A DNA stretch of 64,000 bases from Escherichia coli. Lineage in GTDB: Bacteria > Pseudomonadota > Gammaproteobacteria > Enterobacterales > Enterobacteriaceae. How positions within the stretch are numbered: the stretch's first letter is position 1; each line of letters starts with the position of its first letter. Below, piece by piece: positions 6,571 through 15,202 of the stretch. The stretch is taken from assembly GCF_044324875.1 (NCBI RefSeq), contig NZ_CP172186.1. One strand, given 5' to 3'. Both the position numbers and the translations under genes were made by a program. Under the pieces are notes generated by a model. That model saw only the letters and a list, made by a program, of their open reading frames with translations. It searched no databases and had not been told where the DNA came from.

Positions 6571-7669
6571 TGTGATTATCCTCGGTATCTGTGGCTTTCA
6601 GGAACAGGCTGACGGTAGTGGCGTCTTTCAGGATGCCGGACGGCAGGTGCCAGCCGGTATCGGATAACACCCATGGGGTACCGCCAAAACCGAACTGGCG
6701 GAAAGCCTGGTTATTGACATCGATGGCAGCACGAGCAGCGGTCAGACACTTTTCATCCGGTGCAGCCGGTGCATCGCCGGTGGGTGCCATACCACCGTCT
6801 GCGGAATACAGCTGATGCCATCCGGTCGCCCGTTTTTGTGCGTCCGGTTCACACAGCAGTGGCGCAGTCCGGTTTGTGCTGGCCTCTCCGCCGATTACGG
6901 AGACCGGATAAATCACCACGCTGAATTCCCGGGCCAGTTGCTTAAGCGCGGGCTCCAGAAGACGGCAGTTGATGCATGCGGGGTCAAGGAAGGCGTAGAG
7001 TGTGCGTTCATGACCAGTGGAGAGATTAATGGTGAACATACCCCGGTCCGCGTTGCGTTTAAGTACAGTGGCCAGATTACGGCGGGCTTCAGCGACCAGA
7101 GTATTTTTGTCTGCTGTTATCGCCGGGGTAGCGGATGTCTCCTGCATTTCCTGTGATGCCGGGTGAACGATTTCATTTTTCGTCTCTGACGGGGCTACTG
7201 ACCGGACAATTTCCTTGTCGATGTGTAATGGTGCTGTTTCTGTTACGGATTCTGTGACAGGTACCCTGAGAGGGGAATCGCTGTCCGGTTTCAGTAAAAT
7301 ATATCCGGCTGTTACCGCTGTCAGAAGTGCCAGCACTAATCCTGCACCGTATATCAGCCCTCTCATGAAGCTGGTTTTCCGGGCAGGAAGTTCTGCATAT
7401 GCCGCGCTCAGACAGCTGTCAATCGCGGAGAGCATTCTGCCGATGTGATGTCCGGGACGTTCAGTATCAACGGTATCAACAAGCAGTGTTTCGGTTATTT
7501 CACGAAAAGGGGTGCTGAAGGACAGGTGCATCAGCCTGTTATTACGGTTAATCAGTGCGCCCAGTTCTGTAACCGGCAGGATGGCAATAACCTCCTGACC
7601 ACCGTCAGGGTACAGGGCGGTCAGGGACAGGTGTTTATTGTTCAGTGTTGCAGTGTAGCGGATGGTCAT
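6551..7669 (-). CDS. trbB: TrbB, DsbC-like thiol:disulfide interchange protein
   Basis: 372 aa, TM/signal anchor, thioredoxin-type CINC (CxxC) motif; coupled between trbA and trbC. Confidence 0.65.
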   Translation of the reverse strand: MTIRYTATLNNKHLSLTALYPDGGQEVIAILPVTELGALINRNNRLMHLSFSTPFREITETLLVDTVDTERPGHHIGRMLSAIDSCLSAAYAELPARKTSFMRGLIYGAGLVLALLTAVTAGYILLKPDSDSPLRVPVTESVTETAPLHIDKEIVRSVAPSETKNEIVHPASQEMQETSATPAITADKNTLVAEARRNLATVLKRNADRGMFTINLSTGHERTLYAFLDPACINCRLLEPALKQLAREFSVVIYPVSVIGGEASTNRTAPLLCEPDAQKRATGWHQLYSADGGMAPTGDAPAAPDEKCLTAARAAIDVNNQAFRQFGFGGTPWVLSDTGWHLPSGILKDATTVSLFLKATDTEDNHNEPASR

Positions 7670-8982
7670 TGTGCTTTTTCCTTGTCGGCGGGATGCTGTT
7701 TTTCGGTGGTTTCGGTGGTTTCGGTGGTTTCGGTGGTTTCGGTGGTTTCGGTGGTTTCGGTGGTTTCACCAGTGTCAGTGTCTTCGTCGTTATCATGGCG
7801 GCGGGGTATCACGTCATCCGTGAGTGACCAGCGGGTCCTGATCTGACGTTTACGATCGCGATCTGGCTGAGGTTCGTCCCATATCAGGCCCAGCCCCAGC
7901 ATGTCCCGTCGAAGCCCTTCAATGGCCTCTTCCACACAGGGTTCCGGGCAGGGGAGGCCGAGACGGCTGGCTTCATTTTCTGCCCGGGCAACGGCCACCA
8001 CGCCGGCCCCTTCGATGAAGCCTTTTGTGGTGTTTGCCCGGTGAAGGGCATAGAAGAGCGTCCGGTCAACGCCCTTGAGCCACAGCCAGTTCGGAGGCGT
8101 CAGGCGCAAATCATGTGCGTAAAGCCAGACCAGACCGCTGCGAACGTAACGGTGCTGCCTGAGCCACTTTTGTGCGCCTTCTGTTTTGATGACCCGGATA
8201 AAGGCGTTTCTGGCCAGTGAATACACCGGCGTGCTGAAACGCCCCTGGTCCCGTTTACTTTTGAGCCTGCAGGAGAGATTGAGGTTGTTCATCAGGGCTA
8301 CCGCTGCTTTCCGGTCACCGAGGAAGAACTGCAGGCCAAAGATGGCAAAGAGCGCTTTTTCATGTGGGGCCATGTCTTTCCAGCTGGTCAGTGGTTGCCC
8401 CAGTTGCGCCATGAAGCACTGGCGTGTGGACGCAACATCGAGCTGCATGTTGCGGATAAGGTTGTTCTGCTCCACAAAGGCTTCGGGGGTTAGTGCGACA
8501 CGGCGCTCGGGACGTTTTTGTCCGTGGAAGAGTCTGTTGTTGTCTCCGTCAGCCAGAACGGGGGCGATCGCCGGTGACAGAGCTGAAAAAATATGGGGCA
8601 GTGTGTGGATATTCAGTGGCCTGCGGGTAAAACGGGGCTGGGCCGGATGGTGAAACCACATCCACAGAAAGCCGAATGTCATGGGAAGCAGAATCAGCCA
8701 GAGGATCCCCACTGTCCGGGACATAACATCCAGCCACTGGCTGAAAGTGATGGTTGCCGCGTTGTTAGCAGTGATGGCCAGCAGGTTGTAACGGGGGACG
8801 GCAAAGTTGTGAAAGGGCCCCCAGTCAATCATGCCCCACAGTGTGTGCAGGATCAGGCAGGAGGCGAAGACGATTTCAGGTAAAAAGCGCCAGATGATAA
8901 TCGCAAAGAGCAGGCATATGGCACCGACGATATACCATATAGCCATTGGATCTTCGGCGGCAGACGTCTGTTGGTAAGACAC
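7666..8982 (-). CDS. trbA: TrbA/DotM(IcmP)-like inner-membrane protein with C-terminal (TET)n acidic repeat
   Basis: 438 aa, several TM segments; position and size fit IncI1 TrbA. Confidence 0.65.
   Translation of the reverse strand: MSYQQTSAAEDPMAIWYIVGAICLLFAIIIWRFLPEIVFASCLILHTLWGMIDWGPFHNFAVPRYNLLAITANNAATITFSQWLDVMSRTVGILWLILLPMTFGFLWMWFHHPAQPRFTRRPLNIHTLPHIFSALSPAIAPVLADGDNNRLFHGQKRPERRVALTPEAFVEQNNLIRNMQLDVASTRQCFMAQLGQPLTSWKDMAPHEKALFAIFGLQFFLGDRKAAVALMNNLNLSCRLKSKRDQGRFSTPVYSLARNAFIRVIKTEGAQKWLRQHRYVRSGLVWLYAHDLRLTPPNWLWLKGVDRTLFYALHRANTTKGFIEGAGVVAVARAENEASRLGLPCPEPCVEEAIEGLRRDMLGLGLIWDEPQPDRDRKRQIRTRWSLTDDVIPRRHDNDEDTDTGETTETTETTETTETTETTETTEKQHPADKEKAQ
7701..7766. repeat. Tandem 9-bp repeat TTTCGGTGG x7 (coding, minus strand ACCGAAACC = Thr-Glu-Thr)
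   Basis: Seven perfect head-to-tail copies inside the 3' end of trbA. Confidence 0.9.
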
Positions 8983-9292: not shown

Positions 9293-9376
9293 ATGATTAA
9301 CCTGTTAATCATCGTTCTCAGGGCGGTTGTTGCTGTGGCTAACGCAGTGATAGCTCTCCGGGAACTGGTTGACTGA
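9293..9376 (+). CDS. 27-codon hydrophobic peptide MINLLIIVLRAVVAVANAVIALRELVD (candidate type I toxin-like small membrane peptide)
   Basis: ATG 7 nt downstream of GGAGA; single predicted TM helix; hairpin 9399-9428 just downstream; below ORF-track length cutoff. Confidence 0.3.
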   Translation: MINLLIIVLRAVVAVANAVIALRELVD

Positions 9377-9785
9377 TAATCCCGGAAACGTACTTAAGGG
9401 CAGAGGGTCACCTCCTTCTGCCCTTTAACAAAATATGCTCAGGTTAAAAATCGAAAACCTTCCTGCACTTCCTGTGCCTGTTCCCGTGAGCCAAACATGA
9501 GCCGGCTTTTACCCGGAACTCCCCAGGAAATATATTCTACATCCACCCACCATTTTCCGTATTCTTCATACGGTCCGGATATCACTTTAGTGACAAATGC
9601 ATCAATCAGGTTCATTTTTACACCTTTCTGTTATTCTGCTTATTACGACCAGCAGACAGCAAATATTAAAAATAACGCGGCGGTAATGCGTATTCCGCTC
9701 TATTCGATCACGGATTGGCATCGAAGTCCGATCAGCGATTCGCATCCATTCGATCAACCGGGAACTTAACTTTTTCTACCGCTTT

Positions 9786-10565
9786 TTAACGCGTTTTTTC
9801 GCTGCTTTCCACTACCGGGGGATTTTTCCTCAGTGACTCTCCCTGAAGGACCACTCGGTGTGAGTTATGTACCAGTCTGTCCAGGATGGCATCTGCTGTT
9901 GTTGGGTTCTCCATCAGACCATGCCATTTATCTACCGGGAACTGGCTTACCACTATCGTGCTGCTTTGTCCGTAACGATCCTCTATGAGCTCCAGAAGGT
10001 CATTACACTGGGCGTTACTTAACTGTTCCAGCCCCAGATCGTCCAGGATTAGAACCTGTATTTTTTGCAACTGTTTCAGATATTTCAGCCAGCTGCCATC
10101 AACACGTCCCTGAGCCAGTTGTTCCAGTAATCGCCCGGTTCTACAGTACCGGACGCTGTGTTTCTGTCGACATGCCTGTTCGCCCAGCGCATTGGCTATC
10201 CAGCTCTTGCCACATCCTGTCGGACCGGTTATCAGCAGGTTTTTCCTGTGGGTTATGTAGTGGCCGTTCAGCAGTTCTCTCATCTGTTCAGCCCGCAGAC
10301 CTCTTGAGGCCGGATAGCGCAGCCCTTCCGGTGTTGCCTGGTATTTCAGGCCGGCATTTTTTCTCAACCGTGCCACACGGCTGTTTTCCCTGCTCAGAAG
10401 CTCGTCATCAACCAGCAGCGTCAGCCTTTCCTCGAACGACAGTTCGTCGTAGGTCTGAGGCGTTTCCCGCTGCCGTATCAGGCTCCCGGCCATCGCCGGG
10501 AGTTTCAGTTGGGTCAGTTTGTTTAACAGGTTATCACTCATACTGTTGTTCCTTCTGTCAGTGGT
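9786..10565 (-). CDS. istB: IS21-family helper ATPase IstB
   Basis: Walker A GPTGCGKSW, DnaC-like AAA+; start taken at MSDNLLNKL inside the 332-aa ORF. Confidence 0.9.
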   Translation of the reverse strand, partial: TTDRRNNSMSDNLLNKLTQLKLPAMAGSLIRQRETPQTYDELSFEERLTLLVDDELLSRENSRVARLRKNAGLKYQATPEGLRYPASRGLRAEQMRELLNGHYITHRKNLLITGPTGCGKSWIANALGEQACRQKHSVRYCRTGRLLEQLAQGRVDGSWLKYLKQLQKIQVLILDDLGLEQLSNAQCNDLLELIEDRYGQSSTIVVSQFPVDKWHGLMENPTTADAILDRLVHNSHRVVLQGESLRKNPPVVESSEKTR

Positions 10566-12204
10566 AGTAGCCCGGACCACGCAGGTTTTCATGCTCTGAA
10601 GCATATGCCGGATGTTGTTCGCCCTGGCGGGATAATGGAAGCTCCAGGTTCTCCCGATGGTGACGCAGCAGATTGTCGATAAAGCGTCTGTCAGGGGCGT
10701 TATAGTGCAGGGCAACGTAACAGGCCTTTTCCAGCCGTTCCGGGCCGTATTTTTTCTGAAGTGCCAGCAGCCCCAGAACTGCACGATAAGCCAGTTCCGG
10801 ATGGGGTTTTGCCTTCAGCATGGATTCAACCACCCGGCCTGTGGACGGGCCCGTACGTTTTCCCTGCTCGATCAGGCGTTCCGGTGTCCATGTCCCGTGC
10901 TGCCGGTGGCGCTCTGGCATGTGAAGCGGATTGGTTGTGTGTTTATATTCATGTGTGCTGCGCGGATGTTGCGCCACACACTGCCCCTTGTGCCAGAGCT
11001 GTACCACCGACTGCCCCGCCTTCAGTGACAGACGCTGACCGACCAGTTCGTGTGGAACGGAGTACCAGTGACGGGCATATTCAACGTGGTAGTCAGGGCC
11101 AACCTTCACAGCTTTGTATTCCGTGTATTCATAAGGTGCCAGAGGCAGCGGAGAGAGTGCTGGCGCATCCAGTATGCGGAAGCGTTCTGCACGGGTTTGA
11201 TTGCCGTACCCCTTCATTGGCCGGTTATTCATGTCTGTCAGTAACTCCCTAAGGCGCGCATTCAGCGCCCTGAGCGTGTGGAAGGTTTCATTACGGATGC
11301 GGGCAAGAAGCCATCGTTCAACGATGAGGACGCCGTTTTCTGCTTTTGGTTTATCTTTAGGTTTGCGTGGTCGGGCCGGGATGATAACCGTGCCATAGTG
11401 CTCAGCCAGTGCCTGATAACTGTCGTTGATGACAGGCTCATATCGATCGGCCTTTTTCACTGCGCTTCTGAGGTTATCGGGGATGAGCAGCTTCGGTACG
11501 CCGCCCAGGAAGGTCAGGCAACGGCTGTGGGCATTTAACCATGACATCATGTCCTGACCTTCGCACGCTTCAACGTAGGTATAGTTGGACGCCCCCATTA
11601 CGGCCACGAAGATTGCCACGCGGCGTATCTCACCGGTGTCCGGATTAATAACAGGAACCGTAGGACCACAGAAGTCGATAAAAAGCTTTTCGCCGGCACG
11701 ATGCTCCTGGCGCATGGAGAGACGTCGCGTTTTTTTCCACTCCCGGTAGCAACGGCAGAAGTGCGAGTATCCCATCGCTTTGTTACCCGCCTGTGCCTTG
11801 TATTCCATCCACAACAGTTGCCGCGTCACACCTGGTTTTCTCATTTCCGTATCGAAGTACAACATGTCAGGCATTACAAGCTCTGATGCAAAGGTGTCTT
11901 TGGGCGGAAAAATGAGTTTCTCCAGCGTGTCATGGGATATATCAGCAGGTAATGGCCATGACAGAGAAGAGGCTTTGAAGCGGGCAAGAACCTCAAAAAC
12001 GGTTGAGGCGCTGATGTGTAACGTCAGTCCGATACAACGGTTAGTCAGCTTCTTGTCGAACTTGAGCTGAAGGATCTTAAAACAGGTTTCCATAGTGCTC
12101 CTGGATTTTCTCTTTCTGGACATTGACGTCTCCACTGGTTTAAACACGGCAATGGAGACTGTGGTGAAAAGAGTTAATTCCCGGAGTGACTGGCAGGATG
12201 CCAA
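10558..12204 (-). CDS. istA: IS21-family transposase IstA (true start probably internal, METCFKIL at ~12093)
   Basis: N-terminal HTH, LSWPLPA motif, DDE core; 2-nt spacing to istB. Confidence 0.9.
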   Translation of the reverse strand: MASCQSLRELTLFTTVSIAVFKPVETSMSRKRKSRSTMETCFKILQLKFDKKLTNRCIGLTLHISASTVFEVLARFKASSLSWPLPADISHDTLEKLIFPPKDTFASELVMPDMLYFDTEMRKPGVTRQLLWMEYKAQAGNKAMGYSHFCRCYREWKKTRRLSMRQEHRAGEKLFIDFCGPTVPVINPDTGEIRRVAIFVAVMGASNYTYVEACEGQDMMSWLNAHSRCLTFLGGVPKLLIPDNLRSAVKKADRYEPVINDSYQALAEHYGTVIIPARPRKPKDKPKAENGVLIVERWLLARIRNETFHTLRALNARLRELLTDMNNRPMKGYGNQTRAERFRILDAPALSPLPLAPYEYTEYKAVKVGPDYHVEYARHWYSVPHELVGQRLSLKAGQSVVQLWHKGQCVAQHPRSTHEYKHTTNPLHMPERHRQHGTWTPERLIEQGKRTGPSTGRVVESMLKAKPHPELAYRAVLGLLALQKKYGPERLEKACYVALHYNAPDRRFIDNLLRHHRENLELPLSRQGEQHPAYASEHENLRGPGYYH

Positions 12205-12408
12205 TCAATGATCGGAAGCATGCCAAATCGTGATCGATTGTGATGCCAAACTGTGATCGGAGATGGATGCCAAATCATGATCGATTCGAATGCCAAACTG
12301 CGATCGATTCAGATGCCATTTTGCAGGTAAAAATGGCAATTTTTTTCATGCTGTATTTTTGCCATTTATTTTCTTTGAAATGGTTTTTTTCTTCATATCA
12401 GCAAATAA

Positions 12409-12876
12409 TTATTTCTTATTCTGTTTTCTCCAGGTCCATGGTGGTACCGGATTTTTATCTGCCCATAATCCCCGCTTCAGGGCGCGGGCATCACGCTGGA
12501 GCGGCGGGAGAGTATAGTCATTATTGTAGTCCGGGTACACCCAGGCAGCGCCGTTACGGACCTGCCAGCGATTTGCTTCTGTGCCGTCAGCGGTATAGAC
12601 CCGGCCGAGAATACGGCCATACCTGTCTGTCTGCGCGTATTGCACGGTTACGGGCTTTCCGGCCACCAGGTCCTTCAGCTGAGTGGCTGACCAGCGTCCA
12701 AAGGGCTGTTTCTTTTCCGGTGCATCAATATTAGCCAGACGGACCCTGACAGGCTTTTTGTCCTGTAATATTTCCAGCGTATCACCATCAAGAACGCGGA
12801 TGACGTGCCCCTGAATCTGTGCGGCACAGAGAGAAGCGGAAAAAATAATGGTGAGTGAAAAGATATATTTTATCAT
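12409..12876 (-). CDS. nuc: Secreted thermonuclease (staphylococcal nuclease/SNase-like) Nuc
   Basis: 155 aa, signal peptide, VIRVLDGDT and RLANIDAPE motifs typical of SNase fold. Confidence 0.8.
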   Translation of the reverse strand: MIKYIFSLTIIFSASLCAAQIQGHVIRVLDGDTLEILQDKKPVRVRLANIDAPEKKQPFGRWSATQLKDLVAGKPVTVQYAQTDRYGRILGRVYTADGTEANRWQVRNGAAWVYPDYNNDYTLPPLQRDARALKRGLWADKNPVPPWTWRKQNKK

Positions 12877-12978: not shown

Positions 12979-13659
12979 ATGAATTCCAGTACGCTGATAT
13001 CCGTGATGATACGGCAACAGATATCCGGTGACGGTATGCAGGAACATATTGATTATCAGATTGAGAAATATCAGTTCAGGGCCAGGAATGAGTCACCGCG
13101 ACTGATGCGCCAGTGGGAAGATGTCATGCGTGAATGCCGTGATACCGGAGCAGGAGCCAGGGAGCGGCTGCGGATTGCCTTACTTAATGTTGATTATGTG
13201 ACCAGTTTTGAACTGCCGTTTCGTCTGCTGTTAACCCGGACACCGCAGATGATTGACAGCGTGCGGCGGGAATGGCAGCTCAGCCAGAAAAAAGTCGTAT
13301 TCAATGAGCGGCAGCGGGGATGTGTATACAGTCTGCAGAATGACTTATCCGGCGTGCCGGATAGCTTCAGTTACAGTCTTGCGACGCGAATACGGCGGGT
13401 GGACAGCTATGGCATGACGACGCGTTGTTTCACTGATATAGCCGGGCAGGTTAAAGCCCCGACAGCACGGCTGAAACTGGCGCTGGAAAGCGGGTTAATT
13501 GTCACCGCGCTGGATGGTCTGTTCTGGCTTGGTATTCAGCGTATTGCCGCAGATGTGCAGCGGCTGCGTCAGTCCGGAATGACAATCATCACCCGGGATG
13601 TTGAGGTCTCAGACTCGCTGACCGGAACCACACGGGTTGTTTCCGGGTACAGACTTTGA
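12979..13659 (+). CDS. Hypothetical protein, possible C-terminal DNA-binding helix
   Basis: 226-aa ORF divergent from nuc with AT-rich shared upstream region; no recognised family. Confidence 0.45.
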   Translation: MNSSTLISVMIRQQISGDGMQEHIDYQIEKYQFRARNESPRLMRQWEDVMRECRDTGAGARERLRIALLNVDYVTSFELPFRLLLTRTPQMIDSVRREWQLSQKKVVFNERQRGCVYSLQNDLSGVPDSFSYSLATRIRRVDSYGMTTRCFTDIAGQVKAPTARLKLALESGLIVTALDGLFWLGIQRIAADVQRLRQSGMTIITRDVEVSDSLTGTTRVVSGYRL

Positions 13660-14901: not shown

Positions 14902-15195
14902 TTGAGGCTGTATGCCGAAAGCGTTTTGTGGACGGCATGTAGCAGAAAGCCCCAGGCGATTTTTTTATCAATCAACCCAGGGCCCACTGTAATGCCTAGA
15001 CAACATTATAGTAGCCCGATGACGGCCGAAAGGCAATGGAGGGGCTGCGATGCCACAACGAACGTTTTTAATGATGTTAATCGTCGTCTGTGTGACGATA
15101 CTGTGTTTTGTCTGGATGGTGAGGGATTCGCTTTGCGGATTTCGTATCGAGCAGGGAAATACGGTGCTTGTGGCAACGTTAGCCTACGAAGTTAA
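14902..15195 (+). CDS. Possible pndC (mok-like) overlapping reading frame of the pnd locus
   Basis: ORF in alternative frame overlapping the Hok-family toxin gene, as in hok/mok loci; real start uncertain. Confidence 0.35.
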   Translation: MRLYAESVLWTACSRKPQAIFLSINPGPTVMPRQHYSSPMTAERQWRGCDATTNVFNDVNRRLCDDTVFCLDGEGFALRISYRAGKYGACGNVSLRS

Positions 15196-15202
15196 ACGTT
15201 AA
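15050..15202 (+). CDS. pndA: Hok/Gef-family type I toxin PndA
   Basis: Hand-translated 50 aa MPQRTFLMMLIVVCVTILCFVWMVRDSLCGFRIEQGNTVLVATLAYEVKR; GGAGG 9 nt upstream; not in ORF track (<60 aa). Confidence 0.85.
   Translation: MPQRTFLMMLIVVCVTILCFVWMVRDSLCGFRIEQGNTVLVATLAYEVKR

Follow-up and report, generated by a model that had tools for sequence, protein, structure and literature searches.

A complete ISSso4-type insertion sequence of the IS21 family, with multimeric terminal repeats, beside the nuc gene of an Escherichia coli plasmid

The DNA analysed here is a 64-kb stretch of Escherichia coli sequence, referred to below as the window. Between a thermonuclease gene and a short hypothetical reading frame it carries istA and istB, both on the minus strand and both lying between two blocks of short repeats. 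The features of the locus are listed by window coordinates; the istA-side end of the element is called its left end and the istB-side end its right end.

7666–8982: trbA, left of dqlB in window coordinates.
9293–9376: dqlB, a toxin gene between the 58-aa ORF and trbA.
9439–9615, minus strand: 58-aa ORF, start codon 72 bp away from the element; annotated as hypothetical in both pCT and pLH50-c-A.
9682–9686: target duplication GGTAA at the istB-side tip, read directly from the sequence.
9687–12325, minus strand: complete ISSso4-type IS21-family insertion sequence, 2639 bp.
9687–9756, plus strand: right (istB-side) repeat array; inward from the tip, units R1 (9687–9710), R2 (9711–9734) and R3 (9735–9756).
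9757–9780, plus strand: right inner block, ACCGGGAACTTAACTTTTTCTACC, just inside R3 and just past the istB stop codon.
9786–10541, minus strand: istB, encoding a 251-aa AAA+ helper ATPase (Pfam IstB_IS21 at 1e-60).
10558–12093, minus strand: istA, encoding a 511-aa DDE transposase with an HTH N-terminus and a Mu-transposase C-terminal-type beta-barrel (Pfam rve and Mu-transpos_C_2).
12163–12185, minus strand: left inner block, TCCGGGAATTAACTCTTTTCACC, just inside L6; the inverted partner of 9757–9780 (inverted-repeat pairs I1 and I12).
12186–12325, minus strand: left (istA-side) repeat array of six 22–25 bp units phased from the tip, L1 (12325–12301), L2 (12300–12278), L3 (12277–12254), L4 (12253–12231), L5 (12230–12209) and L6 (12208–12186); the unit approximates nnRTTTGGCAT-n5-TCGATCA.
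12326–12330: target duplication GGTAA at the istA-side tip, likewise read directly.
12409–12876, minus strand: nuc, a thermonuclease with an SNase fold (Pfam SNase, 6.5e-22), stop codon 79 bp from the element; annotated as a thermonuclease family protein in pLH50-c-A.
15050–15202: Hok/pnd-type toxin gene, about 2.7 kb beyond the element.

A preliminary description of this DNA had assigned the element to the IS21 family, and both of its proteins bear this out, since they score above the curated NCBIfam cut-offs. IstA reaches 284.7 bits with NF033546 (IS21 family transposase, cut-off 160) and IstB 257.8 bits with NF038214 (IS21_help_AAA, cut-off 200). The catalytic triad of IstA is D140/D206/E252, which stands opposite D124/D187/E233 in an alignment with IstA of IS5376 (8q4d/8b4h). 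IstB, aligned to its IS5376 counterpart (8q3w), displays a Walker A motif GPTGCGKS at residues 106–113 and a Walker B motif LILDD at residues 164–168. The istB gene lies directly downstream of istA, with 16 nt between the stop codon of the one and the start codon of the other. The 58-aa ORF gave no Pfam or NCBIfam match.

The repeats at the two ends were searched for with the motif ATGCCAAAYYGTGATCG, allowing up to three mismatches. Five plus-strand copies were found at 12198–12214, 12220–12236, 12243–12259, 12267–12283 and 12290–12306, and one inverted copy at 9705–9721; a weaker inverted copy (4 mismatches) is located at 9729–9745. The 64-kb window holds no further match at this threshold. 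The chance expectation is 0.63 matches, and six were reached in none of 100 shuffles. Tandem Repeats Finder reported periods of 23 and 47 bp across 12196–12318, and a half-unit forms each tip of the element (12313–12325 and 9687–9699). The earlier account, which described at least five tandem units at 12190–12320 and inverted counterparts at 9700–9760, thus proved accurate. In full register, the terminal inverted repeats are built of multiple direct repeats, six units on the left and three on the right, as is characteristic of the IS21 family.

In this element, terminal repeats scored without gaps are confounded by register shifts between units, and the boundaries were set from identical copies and from an empty site. 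By sequence comparison, homology to unrelated contexts ends exactly at 9687 and 12325, and the intervening DNA is 100% identical over exactly 1–2639 to copies in other plasmids and in chromosomes. The span of 9690–12325 proposed before was therefore right at its upper end and three bases short at its lower end. Read in the istA orientation, the element begins with TGCAAAATGG and ends with GGAATACGCA; its tips are 5'-TGC...GCA-3' and so conform to the 5'-TG...CA-3' tips of the family. The only 2639-bp match in the 64-kb window is the element itself, with no second or tandem copy.

The uninterrupted form of the site is found in pLH50-c-A, an IncK2/Z plasmid. The empty site reconstructed from the window is 100% identical to it over 1000 bp, and its single GGTAA aligns to both copies in the window. 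Over 9 kb, only two differences separate the sequences: the element with its additional 5 bp, and an 18-bp repeat indel within trbA. The alignment of the ends and the search for a target duplication that had been proposed thus yielded the boundaries 9687/12325 and the duplication GGTAA. Judged by its sequence, the backbone is an IncK2/Z-type I-complex conjugative plasmid and not IncI1 proper. The element interrupts the 149-bp spacer between nuc and the 58-aa ORF. It had been placed between trbA and nuc, which is correct on the nuc side; on the other side the immediate neighbour is the 58-aa ORF, followed by dqlB and only then by trbA. As a matter of geometry, the insertion does lie between the trb promoter region and the nuc/pnd side, as had been stated.

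Tandem units of 22–24 bp resemble iterons in size and spacing, and the surrounding genes serve plasmid maintenance and transfer. One might thus assign the repeats to the backbone, as iterons, as a centromere-like or partition site or as a regulatory array close to the trb promoter, and regard istAB as merely lying between them. However, the corresponding locus of pLH50-c-A, whose flanks are 99.6–100% identical to those of the window, contains no match to ATGCCAAAYYGTGATCG-type repeats. The motif occurs nowhere else in the window. Moreover, the repeats mark the exact tips of a 2639-bp unit, and this unit has target duplications of its own in IncHI2, IncF, IncX1 and IncI-gamma/K1 plasmids and in chromosomes. 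Because the empty site is free of the repeats and these travel with the element into at least ten other sequence contexts, plasmid iterons can be ruled out as their identity, and a backbone origin of any kind has next to no probability. The earlier view that these are repeats of the element ends, which would have fallen had they been present in the uninterrupted backbone, is upheld.

Copies with 0–1 mismatches were found in six other plasmid contexts, flanked by duplications of 5, 5, 6, 7, 7 and 7 bp. The copy in pCT has a 6-bp duplication and the Escherichia albertii copy one of 5 bp, while those of the Shigella sonnei, Enterobacter and ETEC1717 copies measure 7, 7 and 6 bp. Target duplications in the IS21 family range from 4 to 8 bp, and both GGTAA and the duplications at ten other sites (5–7 bp) fall within this range.

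The same insertion was also sought in pCT-type plasmids. Two PLSDB records and four complete-genome records covered the junction query, but the coverage was split into two or three pieces; the pCT element is located on the opposite side of nuc and thus represents an independent insertion. Neither PLSDB nor the complete E. coli genomes yielded this exact junction, which makes it a potential lineage marker for the plasmid.

A short sequence in the left flank, AAAATGGCA, matches tip positions 4–12 of the element in inverted orientation 5 bp from the junction, forming a 9-bp palindrome across it. A preference for targets similar to the ends of the element was considered and rejected: a AAAATGGCA-type match at the junction was present in none of the seven other sites examined. 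Since some 9000 9-mers are compared per site, a match of this kind somewhere is not improbable, and we attribute it to chance or to a local peculiarity.

The element is already known. The copy on S. sonnei pINV, annotated by NCBI as ISSso4, served as reference and is 96.3% identical to the window element in DNA, 97.7% in IstA and 97.2% in IstB. By the ISfinder convention, the thresholds for an isoform are about 90% identity to the named element in DNA and about 95% in the transposase. Both values are exceeded here, which makes the window element an isoform of ISSso4. The two agree in length (2638 versus 2639 bp), gene order, tips, six-plus-three unit ends and inner block; they differ by about 4% nucleotide divergence, by the 1 bp in length and in unit L6, where the S. 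sonnei copy has a degenerate GGAAT instead of GGCAT. NCBI labels IstB of the window type "IS21-like element ISSso4 family", and the pCT copy, 99.7% identical to the window element, has been termed ISSso4 (PMC6361801). The name used here is based on these annotations and on the identity to the S. sonnei copy.

A total of 506 plasmid records contain matches to the element, and 232 of them cover at least 80% of it. Matches also occur in 1778 of 5426 complete E. coli genomes, at up to 23 places in a single genome, with at least 80% of the element covered in 225 of the 1778. The variant in the window is the form common in plasmids of poultry-associated E. coli and of E. fergusonii.

The many partial copies could be taken as a sign that the element has become a relic that only looks structurally complete and can no longer move. 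A simple sigma-70 consensus scan of the minus strand in the left end and leader also gave no promoter-like site for istA, and the same kind of scan revealed no outward-reading promoter in the element ends. An IS21-style hybrid promoter, as would be formed by abutted ends, was looked for by eye; it showed just 2–4 matches out of 6 per hexamer. However, a weak promoter of its own is normal for a single IS21 copy (PMC10122671). The reading frames are full-length, the DDE and Walker A/B motifs are intact, and the tips and duplication of the window copy are perfect. In addition, 100% identical copies occur at many sites with fresh, perfect duplications, up to the 23 places per genome mentioned above. 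We therefore consider immobility highly unlikely. It is almost certain that 9687–12325 on the minus strand is a complete and probably transposition-competent ISSso4 isoform that was inserted by simple transposition into the spacer between nuc and the 58-aa ORF of an IncK2/Z-type plasmid, and that its terminal units are multimeric inverted repeats.

Like the prototypes IS5376 and IS21, the element has an istA-istB operon, a DDE triad, an AAA+ helper, a terminal CA, a target duplication of about 5 bp (5 bp in IS5376) and terminal repeats composed of direct repeats, which in those prototypes are bound by the HTH of IstA. Their IstA is about 400 aa long as opposed to 511 aa here, and the similarity is remote (E = 6e-14 over residues 75–373). 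The element belongs to the long-IstA subgroup of the family. ISEc12, IS1162, ISAs29 and ISPsy14-type elements share the long IstA (about 505–560 aa, 42–48% identity), an element size of about 2.5–2.6 kb and end repeats of their own with a period of about 23 bp. The sequence of the unit differs from element to element (TGACCGCTCATTTCGCTA in IS1162, TGGACACCCATTCCACG in the ISPsy14-like element), and the number of direct units detected per end is just two or three in these relatives. IS5376 has two units at each end, only two per end being present in the solved complex, compared with six and three here, and its unit sequence is unrelated.

By analogy with IS5376 and IS21, each terminal unit would be bound by the HTH domains at the N-terminus of IstA. 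In this family several direct repeats make up the terminal repeats (L1/L2 and R1/R2), integration depends on two complete ones, and R1 and R2 are contacted by the HTH domains of the catalytic and the structural IstA subunit, respectively; integration also requires IstB (PMC10122671). On this model, cooperative assembly of IstA on the units of the two ends would give a synaptic tetramer that positions the DDE site at the terminal 3'-CA. An IstB AAA+ oligomer would bind and bend the target DNA and activate strand transfer with a stagger of 5–7 bp. Simple transposition would in this way have duplicated the 5-bp target GGTAA.

The number of units at the left end varies among natural copies. The ETEC1717 copy lacks 47 bp, corresponding to two units, and has four left-end units, yet its istA and istB are intact and it is flanked by a 6-bp target duplication. 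In the pLAO49 copy one unit (23 bp) is missing, and a 74% relative has a five-unit form of the left end. As one otherwise intact copy has just four left-end units, six are not obviously required. It is possible, if unlikely, that the three surplus istA-side units arose by slippage or unequal recombination between units and have no function of their own, and that only the outer two or three units of each end work in transposition. The whole-unit differences between copies and the fact that two units per end suffice for IS5376 (PMC10122671) are in line with this. However, variants of 96%, 84% and 82% identity retain the full set of six units on the left and three on the right, and the six keep their GGCAT and CGATCA cores at 82–84% overall identity. 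The ends as a whole are 90–96% conserved, compared with about 83% for coding DNA; the left end stands at 90%, and the right end reaches 95.7% in the 83.6%-identical Enterobacter variant. The persistence of the units and a left end conserved above the coding DNA point to selection rather than drift.

The inner blocks share a core, TCCGGGAATTAAC, that is identical in all variants, the 74% relative included, and that can pair in RNA with the istA ribosome-binding region; in read-through transcripts, this pairing is predicted to mask the ribosome-binding site. One might suppose that the unequal ends, six units versus three, together with this invariant block constitute a selected regulatory device and not an accident of duplication, although we regard the proposal as doubtful. 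For the extra istA-side units we would then infer the following function. They would titrate IstA over the istA leader or promoter, causing autorepression or holding the transposase in an autoinhibited state, and they would distinguish the two ends of the element, going beyond the two-plus-two arrangement of IS5376. Natural alleles of four, five and six units would then tune the frequency of transposition.

The element points in the same direction as nuc, the 58-aa ORF and trbA. It could thus break off, or substitute for, any transcription reading through into the trb genes, on which conjugation depends. Otherwise, it is an ordinary catalogued insertion sequence, common in plasmids and chromosomes of E. 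coli, Shigella and Salmonella, and its significance is small beyond correct annotation. Its six-unit left end and the natural variants with four and five units nevertheless make up a handy series for studying surplus repeats in elements of the IS21 family.

Both ends of the element begin with TGC when read inward, and GGTAA lies directly outside each of them (9682–9686 and 12326–12330); the element therefore spans 9687–12325 (2639 bp). The preliminary description had placed it at 9690–12325 and proposed a check of its boundaries and target duplication. This check was carried out and gave 9687/12325 and GGTAA, so that the high end stands while the low end moves to 9687 by its TGC tip and the duplication. 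Three independent tests (megablast, six fetched copies and an empty site) agree on this span. Many plasmids carry copies spanning exactly positions 1–2639 at 100% identity by megablast. When the query was extended by 500 bp at either end, the matches in unrelated records were confined to about 9687–12325. Six copies fetched from IncHI2, IncF, IncX1 and IncI-gamma/K1 plasmids differ from the window copy by 0–1 bases and are each flanked by a separate direct duplication (5, 5, 6, 7, 7 and 7 bp). Further duplications were found in pCT (6 bp, AAGTAT), E. albertii (5 bp), S. sonnei (7 bp), Enterobacter (7 bp) and ETEC1717 (6 bp). The window flanks joined with a single GGTAA (1000 bp) are 100% identical to pLH50-c-A (NZ_CP100501.1, IncK2/Z). 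Across 9 kb this plasmid is 99.6–100% identical to the window; an 18-bp indel in trbA, and the element with 5 additional bp, are all that sets the two apart. The repeat motif has no match in the empty-site locus of pLH50-c-A. The repeats thus belong to the element ends, as had been proposed, and not to the uninterrupted backbone.

These repeats were recovered by reading 9400–12700, by pattern search, by Tandem Repeats Finder and by a repeat finder, confirming the tandem units and inverted counterparts noted before. With up to 3 mismatches, ATGCCAAAYYGTGATCG occurs on the plus strand at 12198–12214, 12220–12236, 12243–12259, 12267–12283 and 12290–12306 and once inverted at 9705–9721, with no other copy in the 64-kb window; 0.63 matches are expected by chance, and 0 of 100 shuffles gave six. 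Tandem Repeats Finder reported periods of 23 and 47 bp across 12196–12318. The two regions pair as inverted repeats, with a second, weaker inverted unit at 9729–9745. Phased from the element tips, the left (istA-side) end holds six units of 22–25 bp and the right (istB-side) end three, with a consensus of approximately nnRTTTGGCAT-n5-TCGATCA:

12325–12301: left unit L1
12300–12278: left unit L2
12277–12254: left unit L3
12253–12231: left unit L4
12230–12209: left unit L5
12208–12186: left unit L6
9687–9710: right unit R1
9711–9734: right unit R2
9735–9756: right unit R3

At either end the innermost unit is directly followed by the same inner block, in inverted orientation (TCCGGGAATTAACTCTTTTCACC, 12185–12163; ACCGGGAACTTAACTTTTTCTACC, 9757–9780), and the left end therefore resembles the right end plus three units. 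The core of this block, TCCGGGAATTAAC, is unlike the repeated unit (window 12163–12185 and 9757–9780; about 2700–2730 in locus L019), and its left-end copy is identical in every variant examined, including a relative with 74% DNA identity.

Two minus-strand genes fill the interval between the repeat blocks:

10558–12093, minus strand: istA, 511 aa, Pfam rve and Mu-transpos_C_2
9786–10541, minus strand: istB, 251 aa, Pfam IstB_IS21 at 1e-60

Both products exceed their NCBIfam cut-offs (IstA, 'IS21 family transposase', 284.7 bits against 160; IstB, 'IS21-like element helper ATPase IstB', 257.8 against 200), which together with the six-plus-three end units bears out the assignment to an IS21-family element with multimeric terminal repeats. 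Residues D140/D206/E252 of IstA align with the catalytic D124/D187/E233 of IS5376 IstA, and alignment with the IS5376 protein located Walker A (GPTGCGKS) and Walker B (LILDD) motifs in IstB.

An identical IstB is annotated by NCBI as 'IS21-like element ISSso4 family helper ATPase'. The Shigella sonnei virulence plasmid has a 2638-bp copy whose two proteins are both annotated as ISSso4, and the window element shares with this copy 96.3% identity in DNA, 97.7% in IstA and 97.2% in IstB. Under the usual ISfinder convention these identities class the window element as an isoform of ISSso4. It is widespread, with 506 matching PLSDB records and matches in 1778 of 5426 complete E. coli genomes (at most 23 places in one genome); in 225 of these 1778, at least 80% of the element is covered at some place.

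Comparison with relatives indicates that the units serve a function in the element. In the Enterobacter variant (83.6% identity overall) none of the six left units is missing, their GGCAT and CGATCA cores are conserved, and the three right units are present as well. The ends of this variant are 90.2% (left, 163 bp) and 95.7% (right, 94 bp) identical to the window, as against 82.8% for istA and 83.3% for istB coding DNA. All six left units and both cores are likewise conserved in an Edwardsiella variant (82%), whose record stops before the right end; five units are retained in the 74% relative, whose inner block has an identical core. That the units persist in such diverged variants speaks against drift alone. 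The more remote ISEc12, IS1162, an ISPsy14-like element and ISAs29 (IstA identity 42–48%) also have end units, of different sequence, two or three at each end and spaced at about 23 bp. Unit number varies among natural copies. The ETEC1717 plasmid copy has four left units (47 bp, two units fewer), intact istA and istB and its 6-bp duplication, and the internally deleted pLAO49 copy has five (23 bp, one unit fewer). These differences lie at 2601–2785 of L018 and 2601–2764 of L017, the loci covering the two copies. Six left units are therefore not obviously essential.

Terminal repeats of the IS21 family consist of several direct repeats, as a rule two or more (L1/L2, R1/R2), and integration by IS5376 IstA requires two complete repeats (PMC10122671). 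In the IS5376 IstA tetramer, HTH domains of catalytic and structural subunits contact R1 and R2 alike, the terminal CA is the site of DDE action, and IstB is needed (PMC10122671). By analogy, the end units described here would be putative IstA binding sites. The istA leader (12185–12086, minus strand) has a predicted RNA fold of −27.1 kcal/mol (z = −2.64; equalled by 4 of 200 shuffles). It includes a predicted 10-bp hairpin (12159–12128), kept in variants through wobble or compensatory changes, and a predicted outer helix in which the inner block (UCC.GGG) pairs with the Shine-Dalgarno region (CCA.GGA). Such a fold could occlude istA translation from read-through transcripts.

The surrounding backbone, closest to IncK2/Z and not IncI1 proper, is organized as follows:

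7666–8982, minus strand: trbA (DotM_C domain)
9293–9376, plus strand: dqlB, DinQ-like DqlB type I toxin (47.2 bits, cut-off 35), between trbA and orf58
9439–9615, minus strand: orf58, a 58-aa ORF from the ORF list
9687–12325, minus strand: the element (TGC tips, GGTAA duplication, empty site)
12409–12876, minus strand: nuc
12979–13659, plus strand: HTH gene
15050–15202, plus strand: Hok-family toxin (pnd-type gene), annotated Hok/Gef in pLH50-c-A

The insertion had been placed between trbA and nuc. It does adjoin nuc, but orf58 and dqlB intervene before trbA; the site is the 149-bp nuc–orf58 spacer, and the element is co-oriented with nuc, orf58 and trbA. A consensus scan found no outward promoter. 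At 66.7 bits the Hok-family toxin does not reach the HokA equivalog cut-off of 89; with dqlB it makes two type I toxin genes bracketing the region. At the 3' end of trbA (7701–7767), just upstream of an overlapping DsbC-like gene, a 9-bp unit, TTTCGGTGG on the plus strand, is perfectly repeated in tandem (7.4 copies) and codes for an (ETT)n tract at the TrbA C-terminus. The repeat is 18 bp (two units) longer in the otherwise 99.6% identical pLH50-c-A, so that its copy number varies within a conjugation gene. The left tip and target (12314–12338) form a palindrome with a 9-bp stem, TGCCATTTT-GCAGGTA-AAAATGGCA, with a T-run after it. The AAAATGGCA in the flank equals tip positions 4–12, inverted, 5 bp from the junction. 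Seven other insertion sites show no such feature at their junctions, so it is probably chance or a local target structure. A backbone inverted repeat, AAATGGCAA...TTGCCATTT, lies just past the nuc stop codon (12332–12372).

The exact window junction was found in none of the PLSDB records or complete E. coli genomes. A 99.7% identical copy, oriented as in the window, sits between nuc and the HTH gene in pCT, of which ISSso4 is an accessory module according to Zhang et al. (PMC6361801), and in pCT-like IncI-gamma/K1 plasmids (pCT locus L002, 4099–6737; H176–H179). Since that copy lies on the opposite side of nuc, it represents an independent insertion event. Neither the insertion sequence nor its family is new, and its end architecture is already known for that family; only the six-versus-three unit asymmetry, the invariant inner block and the naturally occurring differences in unit number are mildly unusual. 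Related plasmids took up this same element twice independently, once on each side of nuc, at backbone sites about 650 bp from each other.
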